Virus record (IMG/VR): IMGVR_UViG_3300021131_000004 | Length of the DNA stretch: 64,000 nucleotides | Source: an uncultured virus (IMG/VR IMGVR_UViG_3300021131_000004) | Lineage: Duplodnaviria; Heunggongvirae; Uroviricota; Caudoviricetes | Direction: 5' to 3' (one strand) | Part shown: piece after piece, positions 12,498 to 42,594 of the stretch | Position numbering within the stretch: the first letter of the stretch is position 1 | How the letters are laid out: each line of letters opens with the position of its first letter | Notes under the pieces: generated by a model | The model's database searches: none | The model's input: only the letters and a program-made list of their open reading frames with translations | Told to the model about the DNA's origin: nothing | Translations under genes and position numbers: made by a program

Positions 12498-12655
12498 AAG
12501 TAATCGTAGATGCATCTTCATTAGCAAAGGAGTTAAAAAAGGTATCTCCTGTAATGATGAAAAATACCATTTTACCTATTCTAGAAGGAGTTAGAATGGA
12601 GACGGTAGGTAACACCTGTGTTCACAATCCAGAACTACCTTTTAAAAATGGATAG
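12494..12655 (+). pseudogene. dnaN: Truncated DNA polymerase III beta-clamp N-terminus (53-aa mini-ORF)
   Basis: MKVIVDASSLAKELKKVSPVMMKNTILPILEGVRME matches the DnaN start (MKF.V....L...L..V......T.LPIL..V..E); stops after 53 aa. Confidence 0.65.
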
Positions 12656-14545: not shown

Positions 14546-15055
14546 ATGATTGAGAAAGTATCCCACAATGGGTGTTATTATCCTGCGTTTCAAACAACTG
14601 GCAATGCTGCTAGATTCTGTATGCCATTCGCATTAGAGGTGTTAAAAAATCATCACATAGTGTATGACATCGGCTATAGTAAAAAGGAATGGATGTTCCC
14701 CGGATCGATAGGAGTTGATATTTCTGACGGGAGTGGATATGACGCAATGAATTTACCTCCATTAAGTGCTGATGGAATATTTACTTCACATCTTTGGGAG
14801 CATTTAGAAAGACCTTATGAGGCACTAGATGTGTGGCACAGAAATCTTAAACGACACGGAACTTTATTCATGTATCTTCCAAATATGGACGCTCAATCAT
14901 ACTGGCGGCCTTGGGCAAATAGAAAGCACCTCCACTATGTTAGTCCAGATATTTTAAGAAAATATTTTGATGATAATGAAGAGAAATGGAATAATGTTTT
15001 TATCAGCGAGAGAGATGCATACGATTCATTCACCGTTTTTTGTAATAAAGGATAA
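14546..15055 (+). CDS. Class I SAM-dependent methyltransferase
   Basis: YDIG, DGIFTSH..EH, LK..G.LF.YLP. Confidence 0.8.
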   Translation: MIEKVSHNGCYYPAFQTTGNAARFCMPFALEVLKNHHIVYDIGYSKKEWMFPGSIGVDISDGSGYDAMNLPPLSADGIFTSHLWEHLERPYEALDVWHRNLKRHGTLFMYLPNMDAQSYWRPWANRKHLHYVSPDILRKYFDDNEEKWNNVFISERDAYDSFTVFCNKG

Positions 15056-15765
15056 TGCTAAGTAGAACAATTATTTTAAATCAATTTGCAGGTGCTGGAG
15101 ATATTATTTTCTGTAATTCCATCGCTAATAATTTTATTGATCAGGGGTATAATGTGATTTGGCCTGTAGATGCAATTTACGCACCACTAGCAAAGCACTT
15201 CACAAATATTGCGATGGTTGATAAGGCTTTGATAAATATCAACTATGCATTACCAATGGATTTTAATGTGAGTGGTACAAGGATCATACCTCTTCGATAC
15301 TCCGATTTTTTGTGCAGAGTTCAGTATACAGATTGTATGAAATCAAAATATATATTTTTTGATTGGAATTGGCAGGATTGGAAAAAAAATACTCGCATCA
15401 CTAGATTTGTTGAAAGAGAAGTATCATTATTCCAAGATGTGCTAAGTCTTAAAATAGGCGAGAAATATAATCTGATTTGCGAACAGTTTACCAATGGAGG
15501 AAAGAACACTTTACCTATTGAAGTAAATAATGGACTCCGTAATGTGAAGATGGAATTTGTTCCAGGGTATACCTTAATTGATTGGTTAATGGTAATGCAA
15601 AATGCCACAACCATACATGCTGTTTCTTCTTCCAATATCTACCTGTTCGAGTTGTATCCAATGAAGGCTGATAGAATCCATTTGCATATCCGTAGGCCTT
15701 ATGAGCAGAACCATAATAATTATTCATACATCCTAGAAAAAAATAATTATGTCCTTGAACCATAA
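15055..15765 (+). CDS. Putative GT-B glycosyltransferase
   Basis: Q..GAGDIIF at the N-terminus; DW..V..NA..IH.V.SS. Confidence 0.6.
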   Translation: MLSRTIILNQFAGAGDIIFCNSIANNFIDQGYNVIWPVDAIYAPLAKHFTNIAMVDKALININYALPMDFNVSGTRIIPLRYSDFLCRVQYTDCMKSKYIFFDWNWQDWKKNTRITRFVEREVSLFQDVLSLKIGEKYNLICEQFTNGGKNTLPIEVNNGLRNVKMEFVPGYTLIDWLMVMQNATTIHAVSSSNIYLFELYPMKADRIHLHIRRPYEQNHNNYSYILEKNNYVLEP

Positions 15766-16321
15766 CATCATTAACGTCATCAATCTTCCTGAAGCAATAG
15801 AACGTAGGCAGTCTTTTGAAAAGCAGTTTGTGGATCAGAAAGCTGACTTCAGAGTATGGGATGGATTGGTGGTTGTCGGGATTCCGTTTATGGGTGTGAA
15901 CCTTGCCCATAAGCAAATAGTTCTTGATGCCAGAGACAGGGATTTAAATTCAGTCACCATCGCTGAGGACGATATTATCTTCTCGGCCCCAGGTGCCTGG
16001 GATTATTATAAAGAACATGCACCGGATAGTTTTGACCTGTATATGGGCATGGTTTACTCAGGAGAAATATTGGATAATAGGATCTATAATTACATGGCAG
16101 GTCTGACCCTTTATACCGTTCACCGGAGATTTTATGACAAGTATTTAGCCTTGTCAGCTATGAACCATATTGACCGGTTACTTGGGTCTCTTTCCAATGA
16201 TAACGAGTTCTACGTGTGTGATAAATTCGTGTGTGAGCAGTCGGACGGATGGAGTTATAACAAGCAGGGAAACCATACTTATGGTCACCTGGTTTACGGA
16301 AGAGAATTCTTTGGACGTTAG
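15749..16321 (+). CDS. GT25-like glycosyltransferase
   Basis: VINL....ERR, G..LAH, IAEDD, D.YMG, HID. Confidence 0.75.
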   Translation: MSLNHNIINVINLPEAIERRQSFEKQFVDQKADFRVWDGLVVVGIPFMGVNLAHKQIVLDARDRDLNSVTIAEDDIIFSAPGAWDYYKEHAPDSFDLYMGMVYSGEILDNRIYNYMAGLTLYTVHRRFYDKYLALSAMNHIDRLLGSLSNDNEFYVCDKFVCEQSDGWSYNKQGNHTYGHLVYGREFFGR

Positions 16322-17705: not shown

Positions 17706-19313
17706 ATGGGAACTCGTTCAATTCTTTACAACGAAGAAGCAAGAAAAGCAATTAAAAACGGTGTAGACAAAGTTGCTAATGCCGTTAAAGTTACGCTTGG
17801 GGCCAAAGGACGTACAGTTATTGTTGGTCATAAGTATGGATCTAAAATTACCAAGGATGGTATATCAGTAGCAAGAGCCATCAACCTTGAAGATGAAATT
17901 GAAGCTATTGGTGCAAATATTATTAAAGAGGTGTCTCAAAACACAGTGGCACAAGCTGGTGATGGTACAACTTCTGCGATGATCATCGCACAGGCCATCC
18001 TTCATGAAGGGTTTAAATTATCTGCTGCCGGACATAATACTACCGAGTTAAAAAGTGGTATCGATAAGGCCGTTAAAGCTGTAGTAGAGCAACTGAAAGT
18101 TATTTCTACACCTGTAGATGTTGACTCAGATAAGTTGAAACAGATTTCTATCATCTCTGCAAATAATGATGAAGAAATCGGAAGTAAAATTGCCGAGGCA
18201 TATAAGCTTACTGGTAAGGATGGCATCATCAGTATTGATGATAGCACCACAGGAGAGACTTATATCAAATCTGTAGAAGGTATGCAGTTTGAAAGAGGGT
18301 ATATTTCTCCATTTTTTGTAAATGATGAATCAACACTTAGTGTACAATTTGAAAAGCCATACATTCTTGTTTGTGCCGGTAAAATAAGTACAGGAAAAGA
18401 AATTCTTCCAATATTTGGTCAGGTAGTTAAATCTAACAATGCACCATTTTTAATCATCGCTGAAGATGTTGTTGATGAAGCACTTGGCATCATTCTAACC
18501 AATCGTATTAAAGGGCCTTATCCTATCTGTGTGATAAAATCACCTGGATTTGGTGACAATCAAATTGAAACATTAAGAGACATCTGTGCATTGACAGGAG
18601 CAACACTTGTAAATGATGAAACAGGAGTTAGATTGGATACTTTGACTTTAGAACAATTAGGAAAGTCTGATAAGGTTCTTGTAACCAAGGATGAGACTAC
18701 AATTGTTGGCGGTGCCGGAGATAAAAATGGTATTGAAGCAAGAAAAGATTTTATTCGTAAAAGTATTGAGCAATCTCCTGACGAGCGTGAACAGAATTTA
18801 TTCAGAAACAGACTTGCAAAATTAAGTGGCGGTATTGCCATTCTTTATGTGGGTGCATCTTCAGAAGTTGAATTGGGTGAAAAGAAAGATCGTTGCGATG
18901 ATGCACTGAGAGCCACAGGAGCCGCTCTAGAAGAGGGTATCGTTCCAGGTGGTGGAATTGCTCTTATTCGTTGCGATAGTATTCTTGAAAATTTACCATT
19001 CGATAATGATGGTGAAAGAGAAGGCATTAAATTAATCAGAAGAGTGTTATCTGCACCATTTAGACAGATGGTAGAGAATTCAGGACTAGATATTAACATC
19101 AGCAATATTTTGTCTCTTTCTCAAAATTTTGGTTATAACTTTAAGACTGATAAGGTGGAAGATTTAGTAGAGAGTGGTGTTGTCGATCCTACGAAAGTTG
19201 TAAGAGTGGCTTTAGTGAATGCAGCGAGTGTATCAGGTGTTCTATTGACATCAGAATCACTTATCGTTAATGTGGATGATCCAAATCAAATCATGCCTCA
19301 ATTTAAAAGATAA
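17706..19313 (+). CDS. groEL: Chaperonin GroEL
   Basis: AVKVTLGAKGR, ITKDG, AGDGTT, EGMQFERGYISP, KSPGFGD, EEGIVPGGG, GVVDPTKV. Confidence 0.98.
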   Translation: MGTRSILYNEEARKAIKNGVDKVANAVKVTLGAKGRTVIVGHKYGSKITKDGISVARAINLEDEIEAIGANIIKEVSQNTVAQAGDGTTSAMIIAQAILHEGFKLSAAGHNTTELKSGIDKAVKAVVEQLKVISTPVDVDSDKLKQISIISANNDEEIGSKIAEAYKLTGKDGIISIDDSTTGETYIKSVEGMQFERGYISPFFVNDESTLSVQFEKPYILVCAGKISTGKEILPIFGQVVKSNNAPFLIIAEDVVDEALGIILTNRIKGPYPICVIKSPGFGDNQIETLRDICALTGATLVNDETGVRLDTLTLEQLGKSDKVLVTKDETTIVGGAGDKNGIEARKDFIRKSIEQSPDEREQNLFRNRLAKLSGGIAILYVGASSEVELGEKKDRCDDALRATGAALEEGIVPGGGIALIRCDSILENLPFDNDGEREGIKLIRRVLSAPFRQMVENSGLDINISNILSLSQNFGYNFKTDKVEDLVESGVVDPTKVVRVALVNAASVSGVLLTSESLIVNVDDPNQIMPQFKR

Positions 19314-24470: not shown

Positions 24471-27400
24471 ATGAGCAAATCTGTAAGAGAAAATAAAAGG
24501 GTTCCAGACGCAATAGATTTATCATTTAGCGGAAGTGCCGCTATGCCTCAACAAGAAGTATCAAAAGAGCCTACACAAAAAAAAGGACCTGCTGATGCCA
24601 TTGATATGTCATTTGATGGAGATTTAAAAAAAAAAGATACTCTTTTAGGATCTTCCGCACCTTCATCGACATTACAATCTCAACAAGCACAACCAGGTAA
24701 CACCATTGCTTCTACTCCTGTTGATAATACTCCTAAACCAAAGACAAGAGAAGATTATTTCAAAGGAATTAAGGATGTTGTTTCTAACAACTACGCTGAT
24801 CTTGACGTAAGTGCTAAGAAAAGTAACATCAACCTTAAGCAGGTAGTAATGACTGCTGAAAAAGGTAATGCAGAGTCCTTGGTGACACTGCGTAAATTAG
24901 TTGCTGCAAATTTTGATAAGAAGATAAGTGAATCTACAACACCCTCTAATTTTTCAGCATTTAGTACAGGAGGATTTGGACAACCTATACAAAGTGTTAC
25001 TTCAGGAAAAAATGCCAATCAAGTAAAACTTGAGCAAGAGAAAAATGCGGCATTAAAATCATTAAATGAATTTGGTTCTGTAGCACTTACTAATGATCAT
25101 AAAAAAGTTGCTGGTAATAATATTGATAAAATTGATTTTGTTGCTCTTGGTAGAGACCATCAAAAATATTTTGGCGAAGAAGAAGAAACTAGGCAGCAGC
25201 AACTTGCACAGAAATCTAAATTAGGCATTGCTAAAATAGCCAAGGATAACATTAATTTCAACTACGCATCTATTGGTGTTGGTAATGCTATCCATGACGA
25301 AGAAATGACCTATAATGAACTTAAGGAGGCTGTTAAGAAAGATCCTACACTTGCTCCTAAGTTAGAAGAAAGTAAAAACCAGTTAAATAAACTTTACGAC
25401 AAGCAAAAAAATCTATTCAATGAATATCCTGAAGTAAGAAAACAATATGTTGCTCAGGTGTTAGGTGATAAGATTGCAGAGCAAAATAAAGCTTTTAATC
25501 TTTATGTAAGTAAAGATGATATCATAAAAGCCGCTGATGCAATTGAAAAAGAACATGGTGCAAAATTACCTGCTAATTTCAAGTCAGATGTAAATTCTTT
25601 AATGGATGAAACAGGAGGATTTTTCGGAAATACTTCTCCGGTACCTGGACAAGGATTCAAAGGAGCGATGGATAGGGCTGCTGTAGGAACAGGACTTGGT
25701 ATTTATGGTTTATTGCACATAGGATCAGAAGAAGACAGAGCAGCAAGAAAAGTAGCACTTCAAAGCATGGCCTTTAATAAAGGAACTTCTGAGTCTGGAG
25801 CGACAAAAGAAGTAATGACAATTTCCGATGATGGCAAAACCTATATCCCAAAAAATAACGAAGAAAACTTTCATCATTTTAATCCACTAGATAATCCTGC
25901 TGCTGCTTTTAATAACTACATGCGTGTAGCAGGAGGTGCTGTGCCTATGGTTGCCGAGTTTATGGCAACAGAAGCTGTTACAGGAGGTATCGGTGGTGTA
26001 ATTGCTGGAATTGGAGAAGCGGCAGCGGCACCAGTCGCATTAGTTGATGCAGGTGTAGCTGCTAACATAGCACAAAAATTTGCTTTCTCTGAAAAAACAA
26101 TGGAAGTGGCAAAAAAAGCTGCTAGTTTTTTTGTTACAGGGTTTGATGAAAATCATGATCGTTCTAGTGAGTTGATAAAGGGTGAAGGTATTGTTGCTGA
26201 TACCAAAAGAAATGCGATGGCAGCAGGGTTGACGATGCTAGATATGTTATCATTTGAATTGGTTGGTACTAACGTATCTCAAATAGTAAAAGGGTCAATT
26301 AAGAAGGCTGTAGCTAAAGATTTAGCGGAACATATTGAAAAAGTTGGAGTGGAAGGGTTAACAAGTAAATCAACCTTTATAGATCCTTTAATTAAATCTT
26401 ATGTCCCAAGGTTAGTGACTGCATTAGGTAAAGAAGGTGCTAAGATGGGTGTTGCTACTGCGGTACAAACTGCATTAAAAGATATGGCATCTATTGCAGC
26501 AGACCCTAATCATAAAATGACTCCAGTTTCGGAGTATGCAGACATAGTTACCGAGTCTGCAATAACAGGGATTGCACTTGGTCTTCCAGGTCATGTTTGG
26601 AATACAGAAAGTAAAACATTAAATTCATTAAATAGAGATGCATTATTTGATGCTGCTCAAAACTCTGATAAATATATTCGAAAATATAACCAGGCTGTTG
26701 TTGATGGGAAGATGACAAGACAACAAGCTAATGAAGCTATCAAAGTGGTTAACACTGCAAAATCGGAATATAATAATCGTGAAAATAGAGTTGATAAAAA
26801 TGGTAAGCCGTTAAATGATAGTAAGGTTAAAAAGATCATTGCTGATAGATTTTTACAGAGAGCTACAGAATTAGTAGAAGATAAGGCAGAAAGAAATAAA
26901 TTACGTGAGTCAACACAAAAAAGAATTGATGAAATAAAAGCTAGTGAAGATTGGGTAAATATCAATGAGACCCCATTGATAAAAGAAATGGGTATCAGAA
27001 CTATTGGTGATGGAAGACAGTCATACGCTGTTGATAAAATTGAGGATATAGATCCTGCGGCAGATTATATCATTAGTGGAGAGAAGGGTAAGAAGACAGG
27101 AGCCGAAGTTATCGACATGATTGAAAAAAAAGCACAAAACTATAAACATGAAGAAGCTAAAACATCCGAAGGTGAAGAAACCCCTGATCAAAAGGCCGCT
27201 AGAGAAAAAGCCGAGTCTGAAGCATCCCAAAGTAAGGTAACATTTACTGGTAAGGATAATAATTTCTTGGCCAACACAGAGCCTAATTTCTTCACTCCAG
27301 AAGAGCGTGAGAAGTACAATGAGTTAATGAAGACTCCAGAGACAGCAGATGAAGCTGCCGATATGGTTTCTAAAAGAAAAGAAGAACTCCGTAATCAAAA

Positions 27401-28412
27401 AAATACTCCTATAGAAATAGAGGATAAAGATTTGATGTTTAAGTATGGAGAAGCTGAAGGATTTATCATCGATGGCACTGCCAGGAAAGAGGTTCGTGGT
27501 GTGATGGAAAAAATGAATGATGCAGAATACATCAACGAAAATGAGATGGACAAGGCTGCTAATCATTTGTATGATTTATTGGATAAACATGGAGATAATC
27601 CATCATTCGCAAATCTTATTGAGCCACTAATAAATAAAATTGAGAAGTATGAATTTAGAACAAAGACTGAAACTAGCACAGTTACCGAAAGAGAAGCAGT
27701 TCAAGTTGCTAAAGAAAATAATAGAAGAAAAGCAGTCAGCAAAGACCTCAACCAGTGGGAAGGAAGCACAGCAACAATCACAGACTCCAACGGAAAAGAA
27801 GTAACAGGTCAGATAAAAATGGATGATGGTAAGTATTATTTGTTCGATGCCGAAGGTAATAAAGTCGCTGTTATTGGAGAGGCTGCACTTACTGATCGTG
27901 ATAGTTCATTGCCACCTACAGAAGAGATGCCTAGTCCATTTGAAATTGGCGAGGATGGTCAGATAAAATCAATCACTTTACAACTGAATAAAGTTGATAC
28001 TGAGAATGGTGGATTGAAGCCGGACAAAAGAATTAAGATTGAGTTTAAAGATCCGGAAAAGGCACTTGACTTAGCGATACAATTACAGGCTGAAGCTGTA
28101 GGTGAATATCCTATGGAAGAGTTTGAAACTCAGTATAGAGAAATTCAAAAAGAAATCAAAAAAGAGGTTCTTGTTTCAGAGGCGAAAGAAAAAGAAGATC
28201 GTGAGAAAAAAACAAAGGAACTTGAAAAAGAAAGAGACCAAAAAATATTATCAGAATCTGCTCCCGATCATAATTTTGATTTTATTCCTGATACTGAGTT
28301 AGCGGATATGCCTAAAGAGACAGAGTTGAAAATAGAGCAAAAAAGATTAAAAAATAGGGCTGAACAAATACAAAATCTTATCAAATGTCTAGAGCTGATG
28401 AGCAAGAATTAG
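24471..28412 (+). CDS. Large putative ejection/internal virion protein (1313 aa)
   Basis: Central Gly/Ala hydrophobic helices typical of podovirus ejectosome proteins. Confidence 0.65.
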   Translation: MSKSVRENKRVPDAIDLSFSGSAAMPQQEVSKEPTQKKGPADAIDMSFDGDLKKKDTLLGSSAPSSTLQSQQAQPGNTIASTPVDNTPKPKTREDYFKGIKDVVSNNYADLDVSAKKSNINLKQVVMTAEKGNAESLVTLRKLVAANFDKKISESTTPSNFSAFSTGGFGQPIQSVTSGKNANQVKLEQEKNAALKSLNEFGSVALTNDHKKVAGNNIDKIDFVALGRDHQKYFGEEEETRQQQLAQKSKLGIAKIAKDNINFNYASIGVGNAIHDEEMTYNELKEAVKKDPTLAPKLEESKNQLNKLYDKQKNLFNEYPEVRKQYVAQVLGDKIAEQNKAFNLYVSKDDIIKAADAIEKEHGAKLPANFKSDVNSLMDETGGFFGNTSPVPGQGFKGAMDRAAVGTGLGIYGLLHIGSEEDRAARKVALQSMAFNKGTSESGATKEVMTISDDGKTYIPKNNEENFHHFNPLDNPAAAFNNYMRVAGGAVPMVAEFMATEAVTGGIGGVIAGIGEAAAAPVALVDAGVAANIAQKFAFSEKTMEVAKKAASFFVTGFDENHDRSSELIKGEGIVADTKRNAMAAGLTMLDMLSFELVGTNVSQIVKGSIKKAVAKDLAEHIEKVGVEGLTSKSTFIDPLIKSYVPRLVTALGKEGAKMGVATAVQTALKDMASIAADPNHKMTPVSEYADIVTESAITGIALGLPGHVWNTESKTLNSLNRDALFDAAQNSDKYIRKYNQAVVDGKMTRQQANEAIKVVNTAKSEYNNRENRVDKNGKPLNDSKVKKIIADRFLQRATELVEDKAERNKLRESTQKRIDEIKASEDWVNINETPLIKEMGIRTIGDGRQSYAVDKIEDIDPAADYIISGEKGKKTGAEVIDMIEKKAQNYKHEEAKTSEGEETPDQKAAREKAESEASQSKVTFTGKDNNFLANTEPNFFTPEEREKYNELMKTPETADEAADMVSKRKEELRNQKNTPIEIEDKDLMFKYGEAEGFIIDGTARKEVRGVMEKMNDAEYINENEMDKAANHLYDLLDKHGDNPSFANLIEPLINKIEKYEFRTKTETSTVTEREAVQVAKENNRRKAVSKDLNQWEGSTATITDSNGKEVTGQIKMDDGKYYLFDAEGNKVAVIGEAALTDRDSSLPPTEEMPSPFEIGEDGQIKSITLQLNKVDTENGGLKPDKRIKIEFKDPEKALDLAIQLQAEAVGEYPMEEFETQYREIQKEIKKEVLVSEAKEKEDREKKTKELEKERDQKILSESAPDHNFDFIPDTELADMPKETELKIEQKRLKNRAEQIQNLIKCLELMSKN
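27148..27240 (+). CDS. Nested +1-frame basic peptide (30 aa)
   Basis: MKKLKHPKVKKPLIKRPLEKKPSLKHPKVR; A-rich leader; LKHPKV repeat differs only at third codon positions. Confidence 0.6.
   Translation: MKKLKHPKVKKPLIKRPLEKKPSLKHPKVR
27649..27804 (+). CDS. Nested +1-frame small protein (51 aa)
   Basis: MNLEQRLKLAQLPKEKQFKLLKKIIEEKQSAKTSTSGKEAQQQSQTPTEKK; amphipathic helices; A-rich leader. Confidence 0.45.
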   Translation: MNLEQRLKLAQLPKEKQFKLLKKIIEEKQSAKTSTSGKEAQQQSQTPTEKK

Positions 28413-31660: not shown

Positions 31661-33046
31661 ATGGCTCTACTAGGAAATTATTCCGTATTAAACAAAGTTC
31701 CTGTGACTTACCTCGCAGGAACTTCTTGCTGTGATAGGAGTAACTGGAATCCTCCTGGGCCATCAAGAAATATGTTCTTGAATGACGAGAGTGTAATGAA
31801 CGTGAACGGTGGAACATTATCTACTCACTTTCTATTTACTTACGGTGTTCCATTAGGTGGTGTACCACCTTACTCTTGGATTATCCCTCAAGTTGCAGGA
31901 GGTATGGCTATGAGGGGAGTAGGATCTTCTTTAGTCTCTTTTAACTTAATTCCTCAATATCCAACAAGTGCTGCGTTCACAGGTGGTAGTACGTTTGTTG
32001 CTAGTTTAAATGCATTAGGAAATATCATATTAGCAGCTACAGGAGGAAGTAGTTTTGTAGCATCGATGACAGGTACAGGTAATATGACTATAGCACTAAC
32101 AGGGAGCTGTATAACAAGTTTAACTATCAGTGCAAATGGGAATATAGTACTAACGCTTTCTGGTAGTTCTGTTGTAACATCTTCTTTAGTAGGTAATGGA
32201 AATATTAGTGTAGGGTTAACAGGAAGTGGTTCTATTTCAGCTACGGCTTCTCAGTTGATAGAAATGATTGCCGCCCTCACAGGTAGTAGCACAGTAACTG
32301 CGAATATCACAGGTAATGGTGTTATTTCGATAGGGTTAACAGGGAGTGGAAGTATCAGTGCAACCTTAGCTTATCTAGTTGGTATGCTATGTGCTATGAC
32401 AGGAAGCAGTTCCTTCTCTGCGAATGCGTTATTACTCACCAATTTGATTTGTAACATGACAGGAAGTGGCACTCTTAACGCTGATGCCGTCATGTTATTG
32501 TTCATGCTATGTAATTTAACCGGTAGCGGTAGTATTACTGCATCTATGATAGGACAGAAGCCAATGTCTGCATCCATGACGGGACTCGGAAGTTTAAGTG
32601 CTAATATCAACGGTCTTTTAGACATGGTTGCGAACTTGATTGGATCAGGTAATTTAAATGGTGGAGTAGGTGCAATTGCGGATATGAGTATTGATTTAAC
32701 TGTTACAGGATCAGGATTAACTACAGCTAACGTAGGTGCTGCAATTTGGGATGCATTAGCAAGTGAATTTAATAAACCTGGTACTATGGGTAACAAGCTC
32801 AATAGTGCAGGAAATGCAGGAGACCCTTGGAGTACAATTTTACCTGCCGGATACACAGGAGAACAGGCAGGAAATATTCTTGCACAGATTCAAGCTTTAG
32901 TAGATGAATTACATAAGATTCAAGGCTTAGATGCGGCTAATCCATCTACTACTGATGTGAATGCAAGAACATGGACCGCAGGAGGAATTACTATAGATAT
33001 GACAGGTGACTTAACTGATGTAACCACAATGACTAGAAGGCCGTGA
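31661..33046 (+). CDS. Repeat-containing fibre/spike-like protein
   Basis: More than ten ~19-aa LTGSGS.SA repeats. Confidence 0.7.
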   Translation: MALLGNYSVLNKVPVTYLAGTSCCDRSNWNPPGPSRNMFLNDESVMNVNGGTLSTHFLFTYGVPLGGVPPYSWIIPQVAGGMAMRGVGSSLVSFNLIPQYPTSAAFTGGSTFVASLNALGNIILAATGGSSFVASMTGTGNMTIALTGSCITSLTISANGNIVLTLSGSSVVTSSLVGNGNISVGLTGSGSISATASQLIEMIAALTGSSTVTANITGNGVISIGLTGSGSISATLAYLVGMLCAMTGSSSFSANALLLTNLICNMTGSGTLNADAVMLLFMLCNLTGSGSITASMIGQKPMSASMTGLGSLSANINGLLDMVANLIGSGNLNGGVGAIADMSIDLTVTGSGLTTANVGAAIWDALASEFNKPGTMGNKLNSAGNAGDPWSTILPAGYTGEQAGNILAQIQALVDELHKIQGLDAANPSTTDVNARTWTAGGITIDMTGDLTDVTTMTRRP

Positions 33047-33306
33047 TAAGACGTTCTGTAGCCATATCGACAAGGGGTAGGATATCTGCGAGTACCAAGA
33101 AGGCAATAACAATTGCTACGATTGGTTGGATTGTGTATACTTCTCCGGTACCTGGTGGTGGCCAAGGAATTGTCCCCGATAATAGACCTCCAGGTGGTAT
33201 ATTGCAGTCGCAAATAGATGACAGAAGAGACCTAGTTAGAAAGATAGTTGAGAGAGATGATAATGAGATTGTAGAAATCATTAAAATATTTATGAAATGC
33301 CTATAG
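33043..33306 (+). CDS. Hypothetical protein, last gene of cassette
   Basis: 87 aa, GTGA coupling, IATIGW and DDNEIVEII motifs. Confidence 0.65.
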   Translation: MIRRSVAISTRGRISASTKKAITIATIGWIVYTSPVPGGGQGIVPDNRPPGGILQSQIDDRRDLVRKIVERDDNEIVEIIKIFMKCL

Positions 33307-36300
33307 ATTGTTTCGATAAACATTACCCTAGAGCGAAGCAGCAATTTACTGATCGTATCAAAGATGGCATGTCCGAACTTGAACAAAGACAAGAGGGATT
33401 AAAGATTGCTGAAGAACTTCAGAAGCAATTGAATGATGATGTGAATGCATTCAAACAGAAGATTGGTAAAGACCCAAAGGAATATAAGTCTACAGATAAA
33501 TCCGCGAAAGTCGAAGGAATTAAATCCGAATACGACACCAAGATAAAAGAGCTTTCTTCACCTAAAACAAAAACAGATGGCAAAGACCAAAAAAGCAGCA
33601 CCGAAAAAAGCAGCCAAGAAAATGCCTCCCAAAAAGGCAATGAAAAAGGCGGCACCTCCAAAGGGGATGTAATCGTACCACCTACTAGAGATGATTTAAC
33701 ACCAATAATTAAAGTTGGAGGTAAGGAATATACAGGATATGATCATGGAGAGGCAATGAAGAGTGCTATTGCCGCAGGAGAGAAAATTCCTAGTCCTGAT
33801 ACACCAGAAGGGAAGAAATGGAGAATGGAGAATGGTATGTTTAAAGATAATGATGGCAATCTTTTAACCAGAGACCAAACTCAAGATAAATATGGAATAT
33901 CGCATAGTGAACAGTTGCTTCCTGGCAGAGAAGTCCCGATATATGCTAGGAATGTTTCTGCGTTAATAACTCCTGCTACAGTAAGAGCTTTTGATAAATT
34001 AACGGCAAGGATGAAAAAAATGTCTGTTAAATATGATGAATTGGTTGCCGAAATGAATAAAAAACCTAGCGATAAAATACTTTCTAAGATTAGAACTTTA
34101 GAAAGGCAAATACTAGGGGAGGCAAAAAAGGAAATAGTTGCGGCCATAGAAAAAATAAAAGGAGTTGGGGTAATGTTTAAAGATGATAATATGGGTTCTT
34201 GGCATGGAACCGCAGAGCCATCATTAAATATGTTCCTTAAGATAGAGGCAGATGCTGACACTCAGGCTTTAAGTGATTTTATACACGAATTTGGGGAAAA
34301 ATATTCCCAGGATGCTATTATACTTGAAACTCAATCAGAGCATCATAATGATGTCATTTCTGGCAAAAAAGACATTCCATTATCTGATTTTGACGGAAAG
34401 TTCTTGCATTATCCACAAAAACTAATTAAGTTTGCAAAAGATTTAACGGCTGATCAGATAGCAAAATTGTCTAATTCTTTAAGATCTAAAGGAGTAAACG
34501 AATTTTCTTTGAACAGTAAAGAGCTGAAAGTTTCAATTATTACTGAACTTTCAGACGAGCAAAAGAAATTATCGGATGACGAACAATATAAAATAAAACT
34601 AGATGACTACAACTCAAAAAACATCGCAACCAGTGAAGCGGTTAACGCACTCGGAAGCAATGGCGGAGTCGAACAGACTATTAGGTATCGTAAGTCCAAG
34701 TACGAAGGAGGGAAAACAACCGGAGAAGGAGGACAGCAACGCAAATACGATAGAAGTGACATTTTTAAGGACTTCTCAGAAGAAGTAAAAGATACCCAAG
34801 TATTGGGTAAGGAGCTTGGCATTTTACGTGACAAGCAAATTTCTTTGCAAGAGAAAGGTAAAGATTTAACTCCTAAAGAAAAAGAGAGGCTTGATGAACT
34901 TACTAAAAAAGTTCAGCCTATTGTTGAAGAAACATTTCAAACAAGAGAAAGAGAATTTGAAAAGGCGAAAGAAGAAGTAGAGTCAATCGCTGCTAAAGCT
35001 ATTAAAGGTATTCAAGGGTTTGTTTCTAAATTCCCAATTAAAAGAGCCACTAGAGCATCGGTTAAAACTCTTAGATGGTATAGTGCTGATCCATCAAAAT
35101 TAGGGGATGCAGCAAGAGTAAATATTATTGCTCCTGACCTCAAAACATCTAATGAGGTTTTTAATAAAATAAATAAAGAGAATGCGGTAGACGCTGATTT
35201 GAGAAGAATAAATGAGCCTACTGATTTAGGTTATCCAAAAAGACTTATCGAAGTAAGAACATCATCAGGTGCTATTGCTGAAATTCAGGTAATGACTCCG
35301 GAGGGATACCTTGCTAAAGATGGTGTGAAAGATTTTCCTGAAGCTGAAAGAGGCTTTGCAAAAAAACAATTAGATAAGATACGTGAAAAATTAGGATGGA
35401 ATATACCAGATGGTGTTGGCCATTATTTTTATGAGATAAATCGTGATTTTAATGTTCCAGAAAACATAAGAGAAGAAGCTAAAAGATTAAGTAATCAGTA
35501 TTATGATGCAATGCTTCGTCCTGAAGAATCTAAAATTTCTGGAGAACAATTTCAGAAAGATCTTGATAAATTTAGGGAGTCTGTTGATAAGGCTGATAAG
35601 ACTGGATGGGATACAGGTAATGAAGGTAAAATTCCTGAAACCGCTAAAGAGTTTTTAAAAGAAAAAGTTGAAAAATCTGAAGAGAAACAAACAGCTCTAG
35701 ATCAAGAGGATGCTGTTGACCATGAAGATCCATTACAAGTATCTCTTCAAAGAGATGCATTAATTCAGAGAGTTCAAGATGAATTCTTCAAGCCTGAGAA
35801 TGGTTCTAGAAGTATTGGCGATGATGTTGTAATGAATGGTGCAATAAAAACACTTTCAAGAGAAGCAGTTGATGCAGGTAAATCAATATTGAATCACTTA
35901 GCTGATAAAGTTAAAAAGTGGGACAATGAATTATTTAATCCTACTACCGGGGAAAGAAGAGTAGATGGAAATGGACGTTTTGTTCAAAAAGTATTGACTG
36001 ATGAAGAATTAGCAATGCTAGGTGTTCATAGTCTTGAATTAGAGAAGAAAATAAGAGAAGCTAAGTTTGAGCCAGGTGTTGAGATGGATAATGCTGCATT
36101 AGGTGCTCTATTAGGCGAACAGGAGCAATTGCAAAGACTTACTGCCGCAGTTACAGAAGCTGCTGGTAGAGGGTTCCGTTTTATACAACAGATATATAGT
36201 TTTGGAGACAAGGGAGAATATAATCTTCATGTTAAATTAGCAGAACAATTGGTAGGATCTAAAATACCATTGGATGAAGCGGAATTTAAATCATTCAAAG

Positions 36301-39300
36301 AGTCTCTTCCTAAAGGTCAACAGAAAGTAGCACAGGTTGCACATGATGCTATCACTGCATTGAAAGCTAAGTATGATGAGATTGAAAAGAAAAGAGATAA
36401 GATTCAGAAAAATAAAGCTAAGATTGACGCAGAAGAAATCAATAAGCAAACTACCGCTGGTGTAAATCAATCTAAAACATCTGATGTTGAAGATGGTGAT
36501 AAAACAAAGAATACTACTAAGAGTGGAAAAATTAAAAAAAGTTCCGCTGTAAAAGTTTCTGATAGGTTAGATAAGTTAGCCGACTTTATTGAGAATAAAA
36601 ATCTATTAGGAGGTAATCTTCCCGAAGGTACTCAAGCTATGGGTGTGTCAGGTGGTCAAAACTTCAGTAAAGCTGTCGCAGAAAGTATTAGACGTATTGC
36701 ACAAAAAATCAGAAATCTTGAAGGTAAAATTCCTGATCTTATTGATGATGAGGTTAAGTTACTAATCAAAGATGGCCATGATGAAAAACAGGCGAGAGAA
36801 GCTATCAAGAATCAATTGAAACAAGCAGGTATTGAAGATGAAGCAATCAATGCTACGCCAAAGAGAGAGGACTTGATTAATAAAATAGTTGAGCATAGCA
36901 AAAATGCAAAAACACCAAACAAATTATCTAAAGAATCTGTAAAGAAAAATTTAGTTAAGCAGTTGGCTGTTGAAGTTGCATTAAGAGGTGAGCCAGTTGA
37001 ATCAGTTCCTGAAAAAGTAATTTCTTTATTGAAGGAAAAAGGAATTGAATTGGATAGAAATCAATATAATGATGCATTTTTAAGACAAGGTGAATTTAAA
37101 TTAAGCAGAAGTAATGATTTAGCAAATAATGCAAAGAAATTATCTAAAGAATTGACCGAATCAGAGAAGTTATTTACTGAGATGGAAAAATTAGATGAAC
37201 AAATTGCATCTGTTCAAGATACTGGCACAATTGATAAAGACAAGAAAGATATTCCTGAAAAAGTAATAGTACCTAAACTTGCGGAAAAAGAATCTCAATT
37301 AAAAGAGGCAATGATTAAGAAGGGAATTAAATTTGAAAGAGGAAGTAAGGATAGCCAGGCTGCTAAGAGAGGTGTTTTAGCAGCACATAACGAATCGGTA
37401 GAAAGATTTGGAGATAAGATAACTAAGATGCTAGATAATGATGCATTTGGTGATAAAAATGTTGAAGGGTTAAAAGACTTTTTGCGTGGGTTACAGAAAA
37501 AATTATCTCAAAAAGTTGATGCAACTAATTTAGATACGCATATTAAGGAAGCCTCATTAAAAGTTGAAAAAGCAATCAACGAATTTAATCGTGATTGGTT
37601 CAAAGCTGAGAAGAGAGGTGATAAAAGCATGCAAGAAGTACTTGATGATTTAAATAAACTTCACAGAGACATAGAATCTAATGCGAAAAAATCTGCTGAA
37701 AAAATTGCATTAGATAGATTTAAGAAGAGAATGAACAGCGAGATTGATGAATATAATAGAAAGAAAAATGCAGGGGAGTTTGATGATACTAAAGGTGTCA
37801 CAGAATTAAAAAAAGATGCTGATGCGTATAGGCTAGAAGATGAAAAAGAATTAGCAAAAGTTGAATTTATGAGAGCCTTAGATGCTTATAAAAACGAAAA
37901 GGCAAAAGATTCTACTTGGGGTAAAATATATTTATTTGTACATGGTGTTCGTTCTGTTACAGGACGTATGATTGTATCTGGACTTGGTAATATTCAAGCA
38001 AAACTTATTGGTTCTTCTGCAACAAGAAGGGTAACTCCATTATCAAGAGCATTAGCACATCTCTATACAAAAAGGTTAGGATTAGAAGGTTCAGTTGTTC
38101 AGCAATCTACTAATTCAAAAGCAATGTGGAGGGGATATAAAGAAACGATAATTGGGTCTAGTGAGAAAAAAGCTATGGCAGCTATTGAAAAAAGCAGAGA
38201 GAATGTGTATGCGGCTAATGATAAATTAGCTGAAGCTCAAGATAAATATAGAGAGTTAATTGAATCTGGAGATAAAGAAGCGGCAAATAAATTTAAAAAC
38301 ACTGAGTTGGCAAAGGCTAGAAATGAATATAATTTAGCGGCTATGGATGATTCTATTAATTTTATGTACACTAAGATGCATACGAATCCTTGGAGAGGTA
38401 GGGCATACATTTTTGAAAAAGGTCTATCTAAGCAAGAAGAAGATAGTGGCATGTTTGGTAAAAGAGAATCTATAGGTGATGTCATGAAAGATAATTCTCC
38501 TGTAGATTTTGGTAACGATACTAATAAATTTAATGCAGCGGTTAAGAAAACAGGAAGTAGAGTATCTAAGATAATTAGAGCCGGATTATTCTATGCTAAT
38601 ATGACTACTCGTTCACACTCTGTATGGAAAGATATTCCAGCTAGACAGGCGATGGTAGAAGGATATATGAAGAGATTAGAGAAAGCTCAAAATGACGGAG
38701 AAGATATTTCTAACTATGAAGTAAAAGCAAGGCTGTGGCATGAAGCAGTTGCAACTGATGGACAAGAAGCTAAGTTTCAAGATAAAAATAAAGCAGTTGA
38801 TATAACAAGAGATATTCAAAGTGCAATTGGTAAGGGTATATTAAAAGCAGGAGGGAATGAATATGCAGCTAAAACAGTTGATGAGTTAGCGTACATGACT
38901 ACTCAGGTATTAAAAGTTCCTATGAATATCGCTAAGGTTAAGGTATTTCAATATGGGTTAGGAACTATTATGGGAACATTTGACGCACTTGCTCAAAGAA
39001 GTAATGCTAAAAAAGCAGGGCTTGGATTTGCAGAATACATGAAGACAATTGATCCTAAATATTCTGATAGGATTATTAATTCATTAGCTAAAGGAACTGT
39101 AGGTATTGCATCGAGTATTTTAGTAGGTGCAATGACGATGAATGGTCAATATGTCTCTGGAGGTAGTTATCCTGATCCTAAGAAAAAAAATGTCCCGACA
39201 AATGAAGGTCCTCAAGATTTAGAATACGGAGATATTGTAATACTAGGACATAAATTACCGCATTTACTTGCAGTAGCATGGGGTCACACTCCACTTGGAT

Positions 39301-39749
39301 ATACAATGGAAATGGGGAATTTTATTACTGAAGAGGCAATGAAGGCTGGTGATAAAGGAGAGTCATTTGTAGAGAGGTGGATGGATGGTTTAATGGAAGC
39401 AGGAAAAGCAACTATATCTGAAGTGCCTTTAATAATACCAATCAGAAGAGAAAGAGATTATAAAACAGGAGAGACTGTTATGAGGGCACACAATCCGTTT
39501 GCTTCATTAGGCTATTTCGGTGCAGTTAAAGATATTGAATCAGGGTATCAAAATTTAGTTCAAAGTCCAGAAGAAAGAACTAAATATGCAAAAACATATC
39601 AGATGAGTACTATGGAAGGAATATTCTGGAGAAGTGGAATGTTATGGATGGTGCCTACTCAAGATGAGGCAGAAGCAAGAAAAGCTACTGAAGAAGCTGA
39701 AAAAGAAAACAGGGCACAAGAATTTAAAAGTAATCATCCTAACTATTAA
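33297..39749 (+). CDS. Giant polyvalent ejection protein with SAM-lyase-like and RelA/SpoT nucleotidyltransferase-like domains (2150 aa)
   Basis: GSWHGTAEPS...GEKYSQDAIIL; IKRATRASVK, LGDAARVNII, LGYPKRLIEV, AEIQVMT, GHYFYEINR; long helical C-terminal region. Confidence 0.7.
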   Translation: MPIDCFDKHYPRAKQQFTDRIKDGMSELEQRQEGLKIAEELQKQLNDDVNAFKQKIGKDPKEYKSTDKSAKVEGIKSEYDTKIKELSSPKTKTDGKDQKSSTEKSSQENASQKGNEKGGTSKGDVIVPPTRDDLTPIIKVGGKEYTGYDHGEAMKSAIAAGEKIPSPDTPEGKKWRMENGMFKDNDGNLLTRDQTQDKYGISHSEQLLPGREVPIYARNVSALITPATVRAFDKLTARMKKMSVKYDELVAEMNKKPSDKILSKIRTLERQILGEAKKEIVAAIEKIKGVGVMFKDDNMGSWHGTAEPSLNMFLKIEADADTQALSDFIHEFGEKYSQDAIILETQSEHHNDVISGKKDIPLSDFDGKFLHYPQKLIKFAKDLTADQIAKLSNSLRSKGVNEFSLNSKELKVSIITELSDEQKKLSDDEQYKIKLDDYNSKNIATSEAVNALGSNGGVEQTIRYRKSKYEGGKTTGEGGQQRKYDRSDIFKDFSEEVKDTQVLGKELGILRDKQISLQEKGKDLTPKEKERLDELTKKVQPIVEETFQTREREFEKAKEEVESIAAKAIKGIQGFVSKFPIKRATRASVKTLRWYSADPSKLGDAARVNIIAPDLKTSNEVFNKINKENAVDADLRRINEPTDLGYPKRLIEVRTSSGAIAEIQVMTPEGYLAKDGVKDFPEAERGFAKKQLDKIREKLGWNIPDGVGHYFYEINRDFNVPENIREEAKRLSNQYYDAMLRPEESKISGEQFQKDLDKFRESVDKADKTGWDTGNEGKIPETAKEFLKEKVEKSEEKQTALDQEDAVDHEDPLQVSLQRDALIQRVQDEFFKPENGSRSIGDDVVMNGAIKTLSREAVDAGKSILNHLADKVKKWDNELFNPTTGERRVDGNGRFVQKVLTDEELAMLGVHSLELEKKIREAKFEPGVEMDNAALGALLGEQEQLQRLTAAVTEAAGRGFRFIQQIYSFGDKGEYNLHVKLAEQLVGSKIPLDEAEFKSFKESLPKGQQKVAQVAHDAITALKAKYDEIEKKRDKIQKNKAKIDAEEINKQTTAGVNQSKTSDVEDGDKTKNTTKSGKIKKSSAVKVSDRLDKLADFIENKNLLGGNLPEGTQAMGVSGGQNFSKAVAESIRRIAQKIRNLEGKIPDLIDDEVKLLIKDGHDEKQAREAIKNQLKQAGIEDEAINATPKREDLINKIVEHSKNAKTPNKLSKESVKKNLVKQLAVEVALRGEPVESVPEKVISLLKEKGIELDRNQYNDAFLRQGEFKLSRSNDLANNAKKLSKELTESEKLFTEMEKLDEQIASVQDTGTIDKDKKDIPEKVIVPKLAEKESQLKEAMIKKGIKFERGSKDSQAAKRGVLAAHNESVERFGDKITKMLDNDAFGDKNVEGLKDFLRGLQKKLSQKVDATNLDTHIKEASLKVEKAINEFNRDWFKAEKRGDKSMQEVLDDLNKLHRDIESNAKKSAEKIALDRFKKRMNSEIDEYNRKKNAGEFDDTKGVTELKKDADAYRLEDEKELAKVEFMRALDAYKNEKAKDSTWGKIYLFVHGVRSVTGRMIVSGLGNIQAKLIGSSATRRVTPLSRALAHLYTKRLGLEGSVVQQSTNSKAMWRGYKETIIGSSEKKAMAAIEKSRENVYAANDKLAEAQDKYRELIESGDKEAANKFKNTELAKARNEYNLAAMDDSINFMYTKMHTNPWRGRAYIFEKGLSKQEEDSGMFGKRESIGDVMKDNSPVDFGNDTNKFNAAVKKTGSRVSKIIRAGLFYANMTTRSHSVWKDIPARQAMVEGYMKRLEKAQNDGEDISNYEVKARLWHEAVATDGQEAKFQDKNKAVDITRDIQSAIGKGILKAGGNEYAAKTVDELAYMTTQVLKVPMNIAKVKVFQYGLGTIMGTFDALAQRSNAKKAGLGFAEYMKTIDPKYSDRIINSLAKGTVGIASSILVGAMTMNGQYVSGGSYPDPKKKNVPTNEGPQDLEYGDIVILGHKLPHLLAVAWGHTPLGYTMEMGNFITEEAMKAGDKGESFVERWMDGLMEAGKATISEVPLIIPIRRERDYKTGETVMRAHNPFASLGYFGAVKDIESGYQNLVQSPEERTKYAKTYQMSTMEGIFWRSGMLWMVPTQDEAEARKATEEAEKENRAQEFKSNHPNY
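33577..33672 (+). CDS. Nested +1-frame histone-H1/Hc1-like peptide (31 aa)
   Basis: MAKTKKAAPKKAAKKMPPKKAMKKAAPPKGM preceded by AAAACAAAAACAG. Confidence 0.65.
   Translation: MAKTKKAAPKKAAKKMPPKKAMKKAAPPKGM
34603..34788 (+). CDS. Nested +1-frame small protein (61 aa)
   Basis: In ORF track; leader AATATAAAATAAAACTAG; host-frame codons shift to C-ending across this interval. Confidence 0.45.
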   Translation: MTTTQKTSQPVKRLTHSEAMAESNRLLGIVSPSTKEGKQPEKEDSNANTIEVTFLRTSQKK

Positions 39750-39751
39750 TT

Positions 39752-40318
39752 ATGATACTACTATCTGCACACAAAGACACTATAATGAACCACTACAACT
39801 TATCATTCAAGGATGGTAAGTTTGTTGGTTTATTGGATAATATGATTGGTATGTTGGCCGTCAATTCTTTAATTACTGAAGACCCAAGTATTTCATACCT
39901 GGAAAAACAAAATAAAGTAGGTGTTTTCTTTGGTAGTTTTGAAGAGTGGGGATTGGATCATGACTTTCCTAAGTTGACAAAAAAGGATTTGGTTATTGTT
40001 GTTGATGTATGCATCGGTAAGCAGTATGATAAGTATGATTTCTCTATGGAGAATATTCATGGTATACCAGCGCATAAAATCAATGAAGTGGTGGAAAATT
40101 TAGAGTGGGAAGGATTTAAGGTGCTGAAGAAAAAGTATACCGGAAAGATTGAAGATGAGGATGAGGCATTCAAGTGGGTGAAGAAAGGAATACCAGTATT
40201 AAGTTTTATTATTCCAATAGAAGGAGAATCATGGCATCAAGATAACTGCTCTATTTCTGTTGAGAAATTTAATAAGTGTAAACAAGGTCTGAGAAGGGCC
40301 ATTAATTATTTATTATGA
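39752..40318 (+). CDS. M28/M20-like zinc peptidase
   Basis: SAHKD, LDN..G, FEEWG, VVDV, C-terminal WH. Confidence 0.75.
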   Translation: MILLSAHKDTIMNHYNLSFKDGKFVGLLDNMIGMLAVNSLITEDPSISYLEKQNKVGVFFGSFEEWGLDHDFPKLTKKDLVIVVDVCIGKQYDKYDFSMENIHGIPAHKINEVVENLEWEGFKVLKKKYTGKIEDEDEAFKWVKKGIPVLSFIIPIEGESWHQDNCSISVEKFNKCKQGLRRAINYLL

Positions 40319-42594
40319 TCGATAAGTATAATTTAAAGTCAAAAACAGTACTCGTATTCGATTTTGGCTCACAGGTTGCCGTAGCTCAGAGGCTTAGTCG
40401 TGACTTCGGTAGAGTTTTATATTATATTCCAAGTGTCATCAATGGATTTAAAGACCATAAGGCTCATAGTATTGGTAGGGGAATATCTGGCATTGAAAGA
40501 GTAGATGATTTTTGGGGGTATATTCATGAAATTGACTTAGTGGTATTCACTGATATTTATGAAGGTCCATTACAGGATTATTTACGATTTATAGGTAAGC
40601 CTATATTTGGTGGAGGTAGGGCAAGCGAATTAGAAAGTGAAAGACTTAAGTTTAAAGAGCTAATTGCCGCTATCGGACTTAATGTAAATCATTATGATGT
40701 TGCATTTGGGCTAACGGAACTAGATAAAAAATTACAGAGTGCAGAGAATAAATTTATAAAATCGAAACTTCGAGGTGATATGGAAACTTTTCATCATACG
40801 AATTATACTTTATCTCAGACTGAATTGCGTAGGATGAAGCATGATATGGGAGTTTATGCTGAAAAAGAAACTTACATTATTGAAAGCCCTATTGAAGCCA
40901 TTGCGGAATGTTATGATAAAGAAACTGAAGTTTTAACTAAAGATGGGTGGGTGTTATTTAAGGATGTGAAATATTCTGATTTAATCGCAACAATGAATCC
41001 TATTTCTAAAAAATTAGAGTATCAACATCCAATAAATATAATAAAAAGGTATTCTAAGGATATTTGCTATATCAAGGCTCAAAAAATAGATTTTGCTGTA
41101 ACAGAAAATCATAATATGGCTTTAGTAAGAGCTAATAATAGAAGAATAGGGATAGATAAAATAGAGTTAATAAAGGTATCTGATATTAGTAATGGGCAAT
41201 TTACTATAATTAATAGTTGTGTATGGGAAGGAGAAGAAAAGTTATTTTTTAATATAGGAGAAAGAAAGTTAAGTATGGATATGTGGCTTAATTTTCTAGG
41301 ATGGTTTATGTCTGATGGATGTCTAAATGATTACAGAGGCCATGAAGTATTTTCGATATCACAATCATTTTCCAATAACGAACAAAGAGACATGATTGAT
41401 GATGTTTTAAATTCAATTGGCTTTAAATATAATAAAAATGGTAGTAATTATAGAATATACGATAAAGAAGTATATTATGAACTATTAAAATATGGAAGGT
41501 ATAAAAAAGATAGAAGAGTTCCTGATTATATTAAGAATTTATCTTCAAGGCAAATAGGTATTTACCTTGAAGCTTATTGGCAAGGAGATGGGACATTAGA
41601 AAGTAATGGGGTGACAAAATCTTATTGTATTGGCGTTAATGAAAAAATGGCTGATGATGTTCAAGAGTTAATTATAAAAAATGGTGGCAACGGTGCAAAA
41701 TTAAAAAAGAAGCCAATGGGAATACATAAATATGCTGGCAGAATAATAGATAGTAAGCAAGAGACATTTATAGTTTCTTCTCATAAAAATACCAATCAAA
41801 TAGTAACTAAAAATCAAATTAAAAAAGAAAGGTATGATGATTTTGTTTATTGCGTAAATGTTCCTAATCATATAATAATGGTTAGGAGAAATGGCAGAAG
41901 TTCATGGTGTGGGAATTGTGGGTATGATGGGTATTGTATAGATGGTTTATTTCCAGAAATTAGCGTATCTGGAATAGAAATTAAAGATGCTGGTTACATA
42001 GGGAAAATGATTCGATACGATAGGCTTCCTAAACAAATTACAGAGGTGAACGATAAATTCGCTCCAATCCTTAATACTTATGGGTATAGATCCGCATTTA
42101 GTACTGAGATTCGTATTGATGATAAAAAAGACGGATATTTTATTGATCCAACACTTCGCCTGCCAGAGCCTAATACAGCATTAACTCTTGAGATGTATGA
42201 CAATTACTCTGAAATTATATGGGACGTTGCTAATGGTAAAATTCCTAATATTAAGTGGTCGTATGAATGGGGATGTGAATTTATAATAAAGTCAGATCTT
42301 GCAAAAACAGAACCTATTGCATTTCAATTCCCTGATCAGTACAAAAAATACATTAAAATTAAAAATTTAGTAATTGATGATAAGGGGGTATATTGGTATG
42401 TGCCAAACAACGTAGAAATGGCAGAAGTTGGTGCTGTTGTAGGATTAGGAAGAACGATGGAACTAGCTGTTAAGATGGCTACGGAAGTTGCAAATTCGAT
42501 TAAAGGATTTGACATAAAAATAAAAACAGATTGTATTGAAGACGCAAGCAAGCAAATTAAGGACTTAAGAAAAAATGGGATAAACTTTTTATGA
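40315..42594 (+). CDS. PurD-like ATP-grasp ligase interrupted by an intein
   Basis: ELESER..FK, YIIE.PI...E, G.EIKD, STE.R, FIDPT.R.P.P. Confidence 0.8.
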   Translation: MIDKYNLKSKTVLVFDFGSQVAVAQRLSRDFGRVLYYIPSVINGFKDHKAHSIGRGISGIERVDDFWGYIHEIDLVVFTDIYEGPLQDYLRFIGKPIFGGGRASELESERLKFKELIAAIGLNVNHYDVAFGLTELDKKLQSAENKFIKSKLRGDMETFHHTNYTLSQTELRRMKHDMGVYAEKETYIIESPIEAIAECYDKETEVLTKDGWVLFKDVKYSDLIATMNPISKKLEYQHPINIIKRYSKDICYIKAQKIDFAVTENHNMALVRANNRRIGIDKIELIKVSDISNGQFTIINSCVWEGEEKLFFNIGERKLSMDMWLNFLGWFMSDGCLNDYRGHEVFSISQSFSNNEQRDMIDDVLNSIGFKYNKNGSNYRIYDKEVYYELLKYGRYKKDRRVPDYIKNLSSRQIGIYLEAYWQGDGTLESNGVTKSYCIGVNEKMADDVQELIIKNGGNGAKLKKKPMGIHKYAGRIIDSKQETFIVSSHKNTNQIVTKNQIKKERYDDFVYCVNVPNHIIMVRRNGRSSWCGNCGYDGYCIDGLFPEISVSGIEIKDAGYIGKMIRYDRLPKQITEVNDKFAPILNTYGYRSAFSTEIRIDDKKDGYFIDPTLRLPEPNTALTLEMYDNYSEIIWDVANGKIPNIKWSYEWGCEFIIKSDLAKTEPIAFQFPDQYKKYIKIKNLVIDDKGVYWYVPNNVEMAEVGAVVGLGRTMELAVKMATEVANSIKGFDIKIKTDCIEDASKQIKDLRKNGINFL
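40909..41916 (+). mobile_element. Intein (336 aa) with LAGLIDADG homing endonuclease
   Basis: Starts CYDKETEVLT.DGW; VT.NH block B; FLGWFMSDG and YLEAYWQGDG; ends VYCVNVPNH...RRNG....CGN followed by Cys+1. Confidence 0.93.

Follow-up and report, generated by a model that had tools for sequence, protein, structure and literature searches.

ORF A, a reading frame of 31 residues nested in the +1 frame of a 2150-aa gene, is very probably a real gene in its own right, and its product is predicted to be a disordered polycation of 3.3 kDa. It was found in the window, the whole stretch of 64,000 nucleotides from an uncultured virus that was analysed here, and the surrounding gene is called the host gene below. 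The sequence-only reading of this DNA had given MAKTKKAAPKKAAKKMPPKKAMKKAAPPKGM followed by a stop, placed behind AAAACAAAAACAG in the +1 frame of the host gene. Translation of the segment returns exactly this peptide at this place, which corresponds to residues 94-125 of the host protein (Table 1). The peptide contains 12 K, 8 A, 5 P and 4 M; K, A and P together account for 25 of its 31 residues, its net charge is +12, and acidic as well as large hydrophobic residues are absent. Such a product is unable to fold or to span a membrane. The host frame across ORF A is indeed the featureless linker that had been described, 32 residues of the types D/G/K/Q/S/E/T/N/A with 6 basic and 6 acidic among them. 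ORF A matches 0 Pfam families at E values up to 1 and 0 PHROG entries at E values up to 0.05. The best scores in the ESM Atlas, 0.87 for ORF A and 0.77 for a second nested frame, ORF B, belong to unnamed clusters and serve as leads only.

Table 1. Features of the nested frame, its host gene and the other parts of the split giant gene.
Feature	Position	Strand	Description
ORF A	33577..33672	+	nested +1 ORF, 31 aa; codon signature, counterpart at L188:6968-7099, footprints in related proteins
Putative A-rich initiation region of ORF A	33559..33576	+	start-context rank; unpaired in centroid; determinants of PMC6847099
Host gene	33297..39749	+	2150 aa; C-terminal part of giant gene (one 2,550-2,840-aa ORF in relatives); added module at aa 212-790
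1313-aa gene	24471..28412	+	N-terminal half of the same ancestral giant gene; identity to P0065 and P0066
Tas1-like (RelA/SpoT-type) alarmone-synthetase domain	34956..35516	+	host aa 554-740; phmmer to PDB 6ox6_A, E = 2.4e-9
Nested +1 ORF B	34603..34788	+	61 aa, inside conserved module of the host; z 5.3
Candidate nested +1 ORF C	27148..27240	+	30 aa, K/P-rich, in 1313-aa gene; z 2.6 only; good start
Candidate nested +1 ORF D	27649..27804	+	51 aa, in 1313-aa gene; z 4.1; resembles nested ORF of L065

The evidence that ORF A is more than chance is written in the codons of the host gene. The phage has 35% GC and avoids codons ending in C, with AGC, GGC and TCC used genome-wide at only 8%, 10% and 5%. 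Within the ORF A segment, 15 of the 21 eligible host codons end in C, compared with 148 of 1509 in the remainder of the host gene, and such rare codons are found nearly throughout. Host codons must end in C here because the +1 frame spells Ala and Pro. The excess corresponds to z = 8.0 for the segment and z = 8.4 for the best sliding window, which stands at the top of 12,954 such windows in 21 genes. We also recoded these host residues synonymously 200,000 times, following the codon usage of the phage. No recoding gave as many as the 25 K/A/P residues of ORF A (18 at most), and none rebuilt the peptide. The +1 frame was open in all 200,000 recodings, so that the open frame itself is no evidence for a gene. 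ORF A scores z = 7.7, the highest value among those listed for 1,304 +1 ORFs of at least 20 aa, drawn from 212 long ORFs in the window and in related loci. Its repeat is simplest in the +1 frame, where 6 residue types are spelled by 12 codons including all four Pro codons, compared with 9 and 10 residue types in the other frames; the DNA itself carries only a 2.3-copy 15-mer at 84%. On these grounds a DNA-level repeat as the source of ORF A was rejected. A caution applies to the motif KKAMKKA, which can appear in +1 as a mere shadow of acidic E/S/D repeats: of 116 pattern hits, 9 have a -1 frame of at least 300 aa and resemble such shadows. The rare-codon test distinguishes ORF A from them. 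ORF A thus shows what defines a nested same-strand gene, an ORF wholly inside another gene with selection on its own frame, and the best explanation of the host linker is that its sequence is largely a by-product of ORF A.

It is also very likely that ORF A is translated. Gene starts of this phage are A-rich and carry no Shine-Dalgarno motif. With a matrix built from 56 of them, the ORF A start ranks second among 952 out-of-frame ATGs. Adenines are found at -6, -11, -12 and -13, and the initiation region is unstructured. In a Flavobacterium study (PMC6847099), A is listed as a positive determinant of initiation at -3, -6, -12 and -13; position -3 of ORF A is a C and not the favoured A. Taken as a whole, the context points to a putative Bacteroidota-type start belonging to ORF A itself. 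Promoter and terminator scans gave nothing above shuffle level.

The window represents part of a phage and includes genes for a terminase, GroEL and tail-fibre-like proteins. The terminase has 87 matches among phage records at ~22-24% identity, which by name are 68 Flavobacterium, 15 Cellulophaga, 2 Tenacibaculum, 1 Maribacter and 1 unclassified phage. Because of these matches and the A-rich gene starts lacking a Shine-Dalgarno motif, the phage probably infects a member of the Bacteroidota. A cluster of methyltransferase and glycosyltransferase genes (12618-16321, plus strand) adjoins GroEL (17706-19313). In the 759-aa ORF at 40315-42594 (plus strand), residues 199-535 are missing in the orthologue of the related genome G001, and the ends of this part look intein-like by eye. 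The second-highest C-ending window (56204-56300, plus strand, z 6.0) is located at the end of the putative capsid gene; no ATG-led +1 ORF was seen there, and it may reflect the codon use of high expression.

Both frames appear to be maintained at the ORF A locus. In the strain comparison with public contigs (run X1), 23 of the 25 listed differences within the host gene fall at third codon positions, and so do 8 of the 9 listed for 33297-33576, upstream of ORF A. Relatives have single ORFs of 2,550-2,840 aa that span the linker. By these patterns the host frame is really coding, across ORF A as well as upstream of it. In runs X1-X3, which come from one study, 12 differences are found in 33000-33675 and 0 inside ORF A, a weak result with ~1.4 expected by hand arithmetic. 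All four strain runs carry an extra 39 nt, in frame, right behind the ORF A stop, with both frames intact. A second short contig in run X4 has the start region with 6 differences and then a K/P/M-rich frame, a loose end of 30 letters.

DNA of relatives came from one relative of the lineage (L188, in G001) and from its cousin L190. G001 is syntenic with the window, since 21 of the 36 proteins tested match and their order is the same. Its giant gene is a single 2835-aa ORF, the C-terminal part of which is ~24% identical to the host protein of the window. This gene contains a 43-aa K/A-rich +1 ORF (L188:6968-7099) with z 4.3, the top value among its 45 +1 ORFs of at least 8 aa. The frame ends in KKAMKKAM-stop, and KKAMKKA together with the Met-stop end is common to ORF A. 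In both phages the frame starts with ATG behind an A/C-rich tract, like the other gene starts of the phage. A further +1 ORF of L188, 30 aa long and K/P-rich (z 4.0), immediately precedes the small domain that in the window comes after ORF A. The L190 sequence agrees fully with L188 until it enters the first codons of the 43-aa ORF; from there on the two differ, L190 having a 9-codon ORF and a shorter, decayed or variant K/P/M stretch that has no stop.

For related proteins a footprint model was used, in which protein segments are fitted to a K/A/P-rich +1 gene running from ATG to stop, with the composition preset and the wobble bases unseen. In 6 of the 11 related proteins (P0063, P0066, P0069, P0070, P0071 and P0072) the best segment is found in the same linker, at 13.4-23.5 bits; the protein of the window scores 18.7 bits and 58 control giant proteins reach at most 12.7. 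Five of the six footprints end on host D/N-V, compatible with Met-stop. No strong footprint is found in the linker of P0065 or P0067, and the scores are 6.2 bits for P0073, a fragment, and 2.5 bits for P0076. P0079 gives 13.9 bits at an unrelated place, so that the footprint score is not fully specific. The nested peptides of the relatives are alike in composition more than in sequence. K/A/P-rich +1 ORFs at this linker in relatives had been proposed as a check; the K/A-rich ORF in the L188 DNA and the footprints bear the expectation out, whereas the decay in L190 and the lack of a strong footprint in P0065 and P0067 limit it. At this level of sequence comparison, ORF A counts as conserved in relatives, and its patchy presence fits a dispensable passenger. 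Several wider searches added nothing: neither host aa 1-498 nor the C-terminal alignment, used as the query, retrieved a relative from viral or genome contigs, DNA patterns for the lineage and for the K/A-Met-stop end found nothing, the 43-aa peptide of L188 returned four candidates in a protein search with none at E up to 10, and the ORF A start pattern returned five hits with none nested in a giant ORF.

The histone name that the sequence-only reading had attached to the peptide does not carry over to family membership. With 31 aa and neither a Pfam nor a PHROG match, ORF A is not a member of H1, Hc1 or Hc2. It is like Hc1/Hc2 and the C-terminal tails of H1 in being K/A/P-rich, repetitive, strongly basic and predicted to be disordered. 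It is unlike them in its length (31 aa, under 100 aa), in having no globular domain or Pfam match, and in being phage-encoded and nested; Hc2 is 165-237 aa long according to PMC2848022. A close resemblance to the free-standing ORF 213-584 had been pointed out as well. The resemblance itself stands, with 10 of 11 residues identical, but it is limited to these 11 residues and KKAAPKK is a generic motif. At least 120 viral contigs contain KKAAPKKAAKK, which mostly forms the tail of an unrelated protein and in none of them is nested in a giant ORF. As such a widespread tail, it leaves the likeness to ORF 213-584 with little weight. The ORF 213-584 protein is otherwise not histone-like (23 basic and 20 acidic residues of 123). 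Kinship of the two was rejected, with 8 of 10 shared residues on different codons (counted by hand) and the rest of the sequences unrelated. Proteins of 170-260 aa that carry long KKAAPKK tracts form a large family in L068, L069, L074 and similar small viral contigs of 12-13 kb.

The host protein has no Pfam or PHROG family match, and no named polyvalent-protein domain is recognised in it by Pfam. A tblastn search of 50,697 phage records with the host protein gave no cultured-phage match, and none was found for the putative capsid protein. By alignment the host protein is a mosaic, and its modules have different relatives. Residues 212-790 are 40-56% identical to a module of many 2,000-3,700-aa proteins (62 hits including itself), and residues 850-2150 match P0065 (64%), P0066 (59%) and P0067 (35%). 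The 1313-aa protein aligns with the N-terminal half of P0065 at 44% identity and with that of P0066 at 50%. Because the N- and C-terminal halves of P0065 and P0066 match the 1313-aa and the 2150-aa proteins, one ancestral giant gene has been split in two here. Seven genes are found between the halves, one of them for a Gp80-like fibre protein, and ORF A is near the old junction. The host protein is charge-balanced with 364 basic and 357 acidic residues, and the 1313-aa protein is acidic with 185 basic and 217 acidic residues. The part of the host before the Tas1-like domain gives a faint match to S-adenosylmethionine lyase (E = 0.004), below the cut-off. The designation of the host as an ejection protein is plausible, because of its position and its Tas1-like domain, RelA/SpoT domains being known from phage polyvalent proteins. 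The host gene has the features of the polyvalent type: it is giant, mosaic and equipped with a host-directed enzyme domain. A study of phage polyvalent proteins includes RelA/SpoT-type domains among them and proposes their injection with the DNA (Iyer et al., PMC5512222); the host protein resembles those described there as a giant phage mosaic with a RelA/SpoT-type domain. The word 'overlapping' occurs 0 times in the main text of that paper and 'reading frame' once.

ORF A is not the only nested frame, and by the sequence evidence the host gene family demonstrably carries nested genes. ORF B was surveyed in 63 loci, of which 53 cover this part, giving 39 distinct sequences with the window included. 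At host aa 452-491 its +1 frame is stop-free in 39/39 sequences, with a Met upstream in 39/39, compared with 0/39 for the +2 frame; any other 40-codon window is stop-free in +1 in at most 17/39. The ratio of third- to first-position changes is 1.2 at ORF B against 2.3 and 3.0 in the flanks (14 independent pairs), and the homologues share a conserved IEVTFL end. ORF B has no Pfam or PHROG match. In terms of these alignments, its conservation evidence is stronger than that of ORF A. An antitoxin of the Tas1-like domain was considered for ORF B and is doubtful, as ORF B is kept in L032, L033 and L035, which match only the part before the domain. For ORF C, a similar K/P ORF is nested in L188:5732-5824, and P0065 and P0066 carry a footprint. 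Basic +1 ORFs of the MP[FY]K type are found in 25 of the 39 distinct homologues of the middle module of the host, and one of them has a weak match to phrog_1375 (E = 0.0097). In L027, L055, L056, L057 and L059, where the MP[FY]K type is absent, the nested basic +1 ORFs belong to a third family, 47-54 aa long with a MIVRK or MIAKK start. Among ORFs of at least 1,000 aa, 38 of 894 +1 ORFs (69 ORFs) reach z of at least 4, against 2 of 410 in 143 shorter ORFs, the sequences being related and not independent. Free-standing tiny K/A/M-rich genes adjoin terminase- or capsid-like genes in L247 (a 22-aa gene), L203 and L239, with the neighbours judged by eye. Rows of at least five free-standing small, very basic genes were observed in L001:6001-7770 and L203. 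In the parts of phages Panino and phi46:3 that were scanned, the best nested candidate reached z 3.4 with 20 aa and was not convincing.

The textbook case of a nested gene is Rz1 of lambda, a lysis gene embedded with Rz as a spanin pair. ORF A is like Rz1 in being a small gene wholly inside a larger one, on the same strand and in the +1 frame. It differs in that its host is a giant multi-domain protein and not a spanin, its product a soluble polycation without a lipobox, up to four nested ORFs occur in one split gene, and the slot takes different peptide families. With the MPFKS-type (phrog_1375-like) genes it shares the place of a +1 basic ORF in the linker of a giant phage gene. It is unlike them in having no MP[FY]K start, aromatic core or PHROG match, in its K/A/P/M low complexity, and in belonging to another giant-gene lineage. 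Our literature search, with most subscription journals outside its range, found no account of basic peptides encoded inside giant genes of phages.

H1 tails and protamines are chains that bind nucleic acid without specificity. If the ORF A peptide is translated, it would likely bind nucleic acid too, by analogy of composition. In the mechanism that we propose, ribosomes would start at the A-rich site of ORF A itself, on the same late mRNA as the giant gene, which would be a virion-module gene of the polyvalent type in an uncultured Bacteroidota phage. The peptide would then bind nucleic acid non-specifically, like an H1 tail or a protamine, during head assembly and packaging, and it may neutralise or compact the genome or travel with the giant protein. 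We place the chances that ORF A is such an independently initiated, disordered polycation, acting on nucleic acid during virion assembly as a genome counter-ion or assembly aid, at about even, and the overall case for a role in the virion is likewise evenly balanced. This reading is favoured over a cytoplasmic role, a silent relic or shadow, a frameshifted tail and a lysis peptide. The peptide could also be made and act in the infected cell rather than in the virion, binding host DNA, RNA or ribosomes at a late stage of infection or chaperoning the acidic parts of the giant protein. We consider this fairly unlikely. Polycations in general bind acidic proteins as well as RNA, the 1313-aa protein has an acidic surplus, and the unrelated basic peptide families that fill the slot in relatives suggest a loose requirement; nested and free-standing versions in the virion module, together with the balanced charge of the 2150-aa host, speak against it.

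That ORF A is nothing but a shadow of the S/G/E/K/Q linker, or an unexpressed relic of a captured gene, is improbable. The +1 frame stays open under every recoding, shadows of acidic repeats do exist, the L190 copy has decayed, and the absence of changes in runs X1-X3 is weak. However, a shadow or relic does not account for the rare codons AGC, GGC and TCC nearly throughout the segment, nor for an ATG, a start context and a Met-stop end that are intact in two phages whose host proteins are ~24% identical. More improbable still is a product with no initiation of its own, in which a +1 frameshift in the A-rich tract would give the N-terminal part of the host a K/A/P tail and end it there. Runs of A precede the ATG, no stop is met in the +1 frame over the 10 codons ahead of it (by hand), K/A/P tails are common on phage proteins, and the giant gene is split close to the same junction. 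Both DNA-confirmed ORFs nevertheless start with ATG behind an A/C-rich tract, no stimulatory structure is found nearby, and the footprints in relatives begin where an ATG is allowed, a weak point because this is built into the model. A cationic, membrane-disrupting lysis peptide is the least credible of these readings and very improbable. ORF A would suit it as a small, cationic, late gene, and the nested Rz1 is a lysis gene; by inspection, however, a peptide with no L, I, V, F, W or Y and with five prolines forms no amphipathic helix, signal peptide or lipobox, and ORF A is not adjacent to recognisable lysis genes.

As for the origin of ORF A, capture of an older small gene is favoured over overprinting of the linker, because free-standing look-alikes exist and the occupants of the slot appear exchangeable. 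We tentatively propose, at somewhat less than even chances, a wider reading by which the linkers of giant virion genes in Bacteroidota phages would be an exchangeable slot for +1 'phage protamines' of several unrelated families, read from one mRNA with the giant protein, produced in step with it and packaged as genome counter-ions. New here are the K/A/P type of nested gene and the four nested candidates in one split gene. Nested products of this kind are missed twice, once because gene callers discard nested ORFs and again because trypsin cuts a peptide with 12 lysines to pieces. If packaged, the ORF A peptide would give a tailed phage a counter-ion comparable to H1 tails or protamines. If the slot reading is true, the low-complexity linkers of these proteins would arise as shadows of genes hidden in them, and neither annotation nor tryptic proteomics would see a whole class of internal virion peptides. 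A second gene can determine the sequence of a 'featureless' linker in a giant phage protein, and this has a bearing on the growth and splitting of such mosaic proteins.
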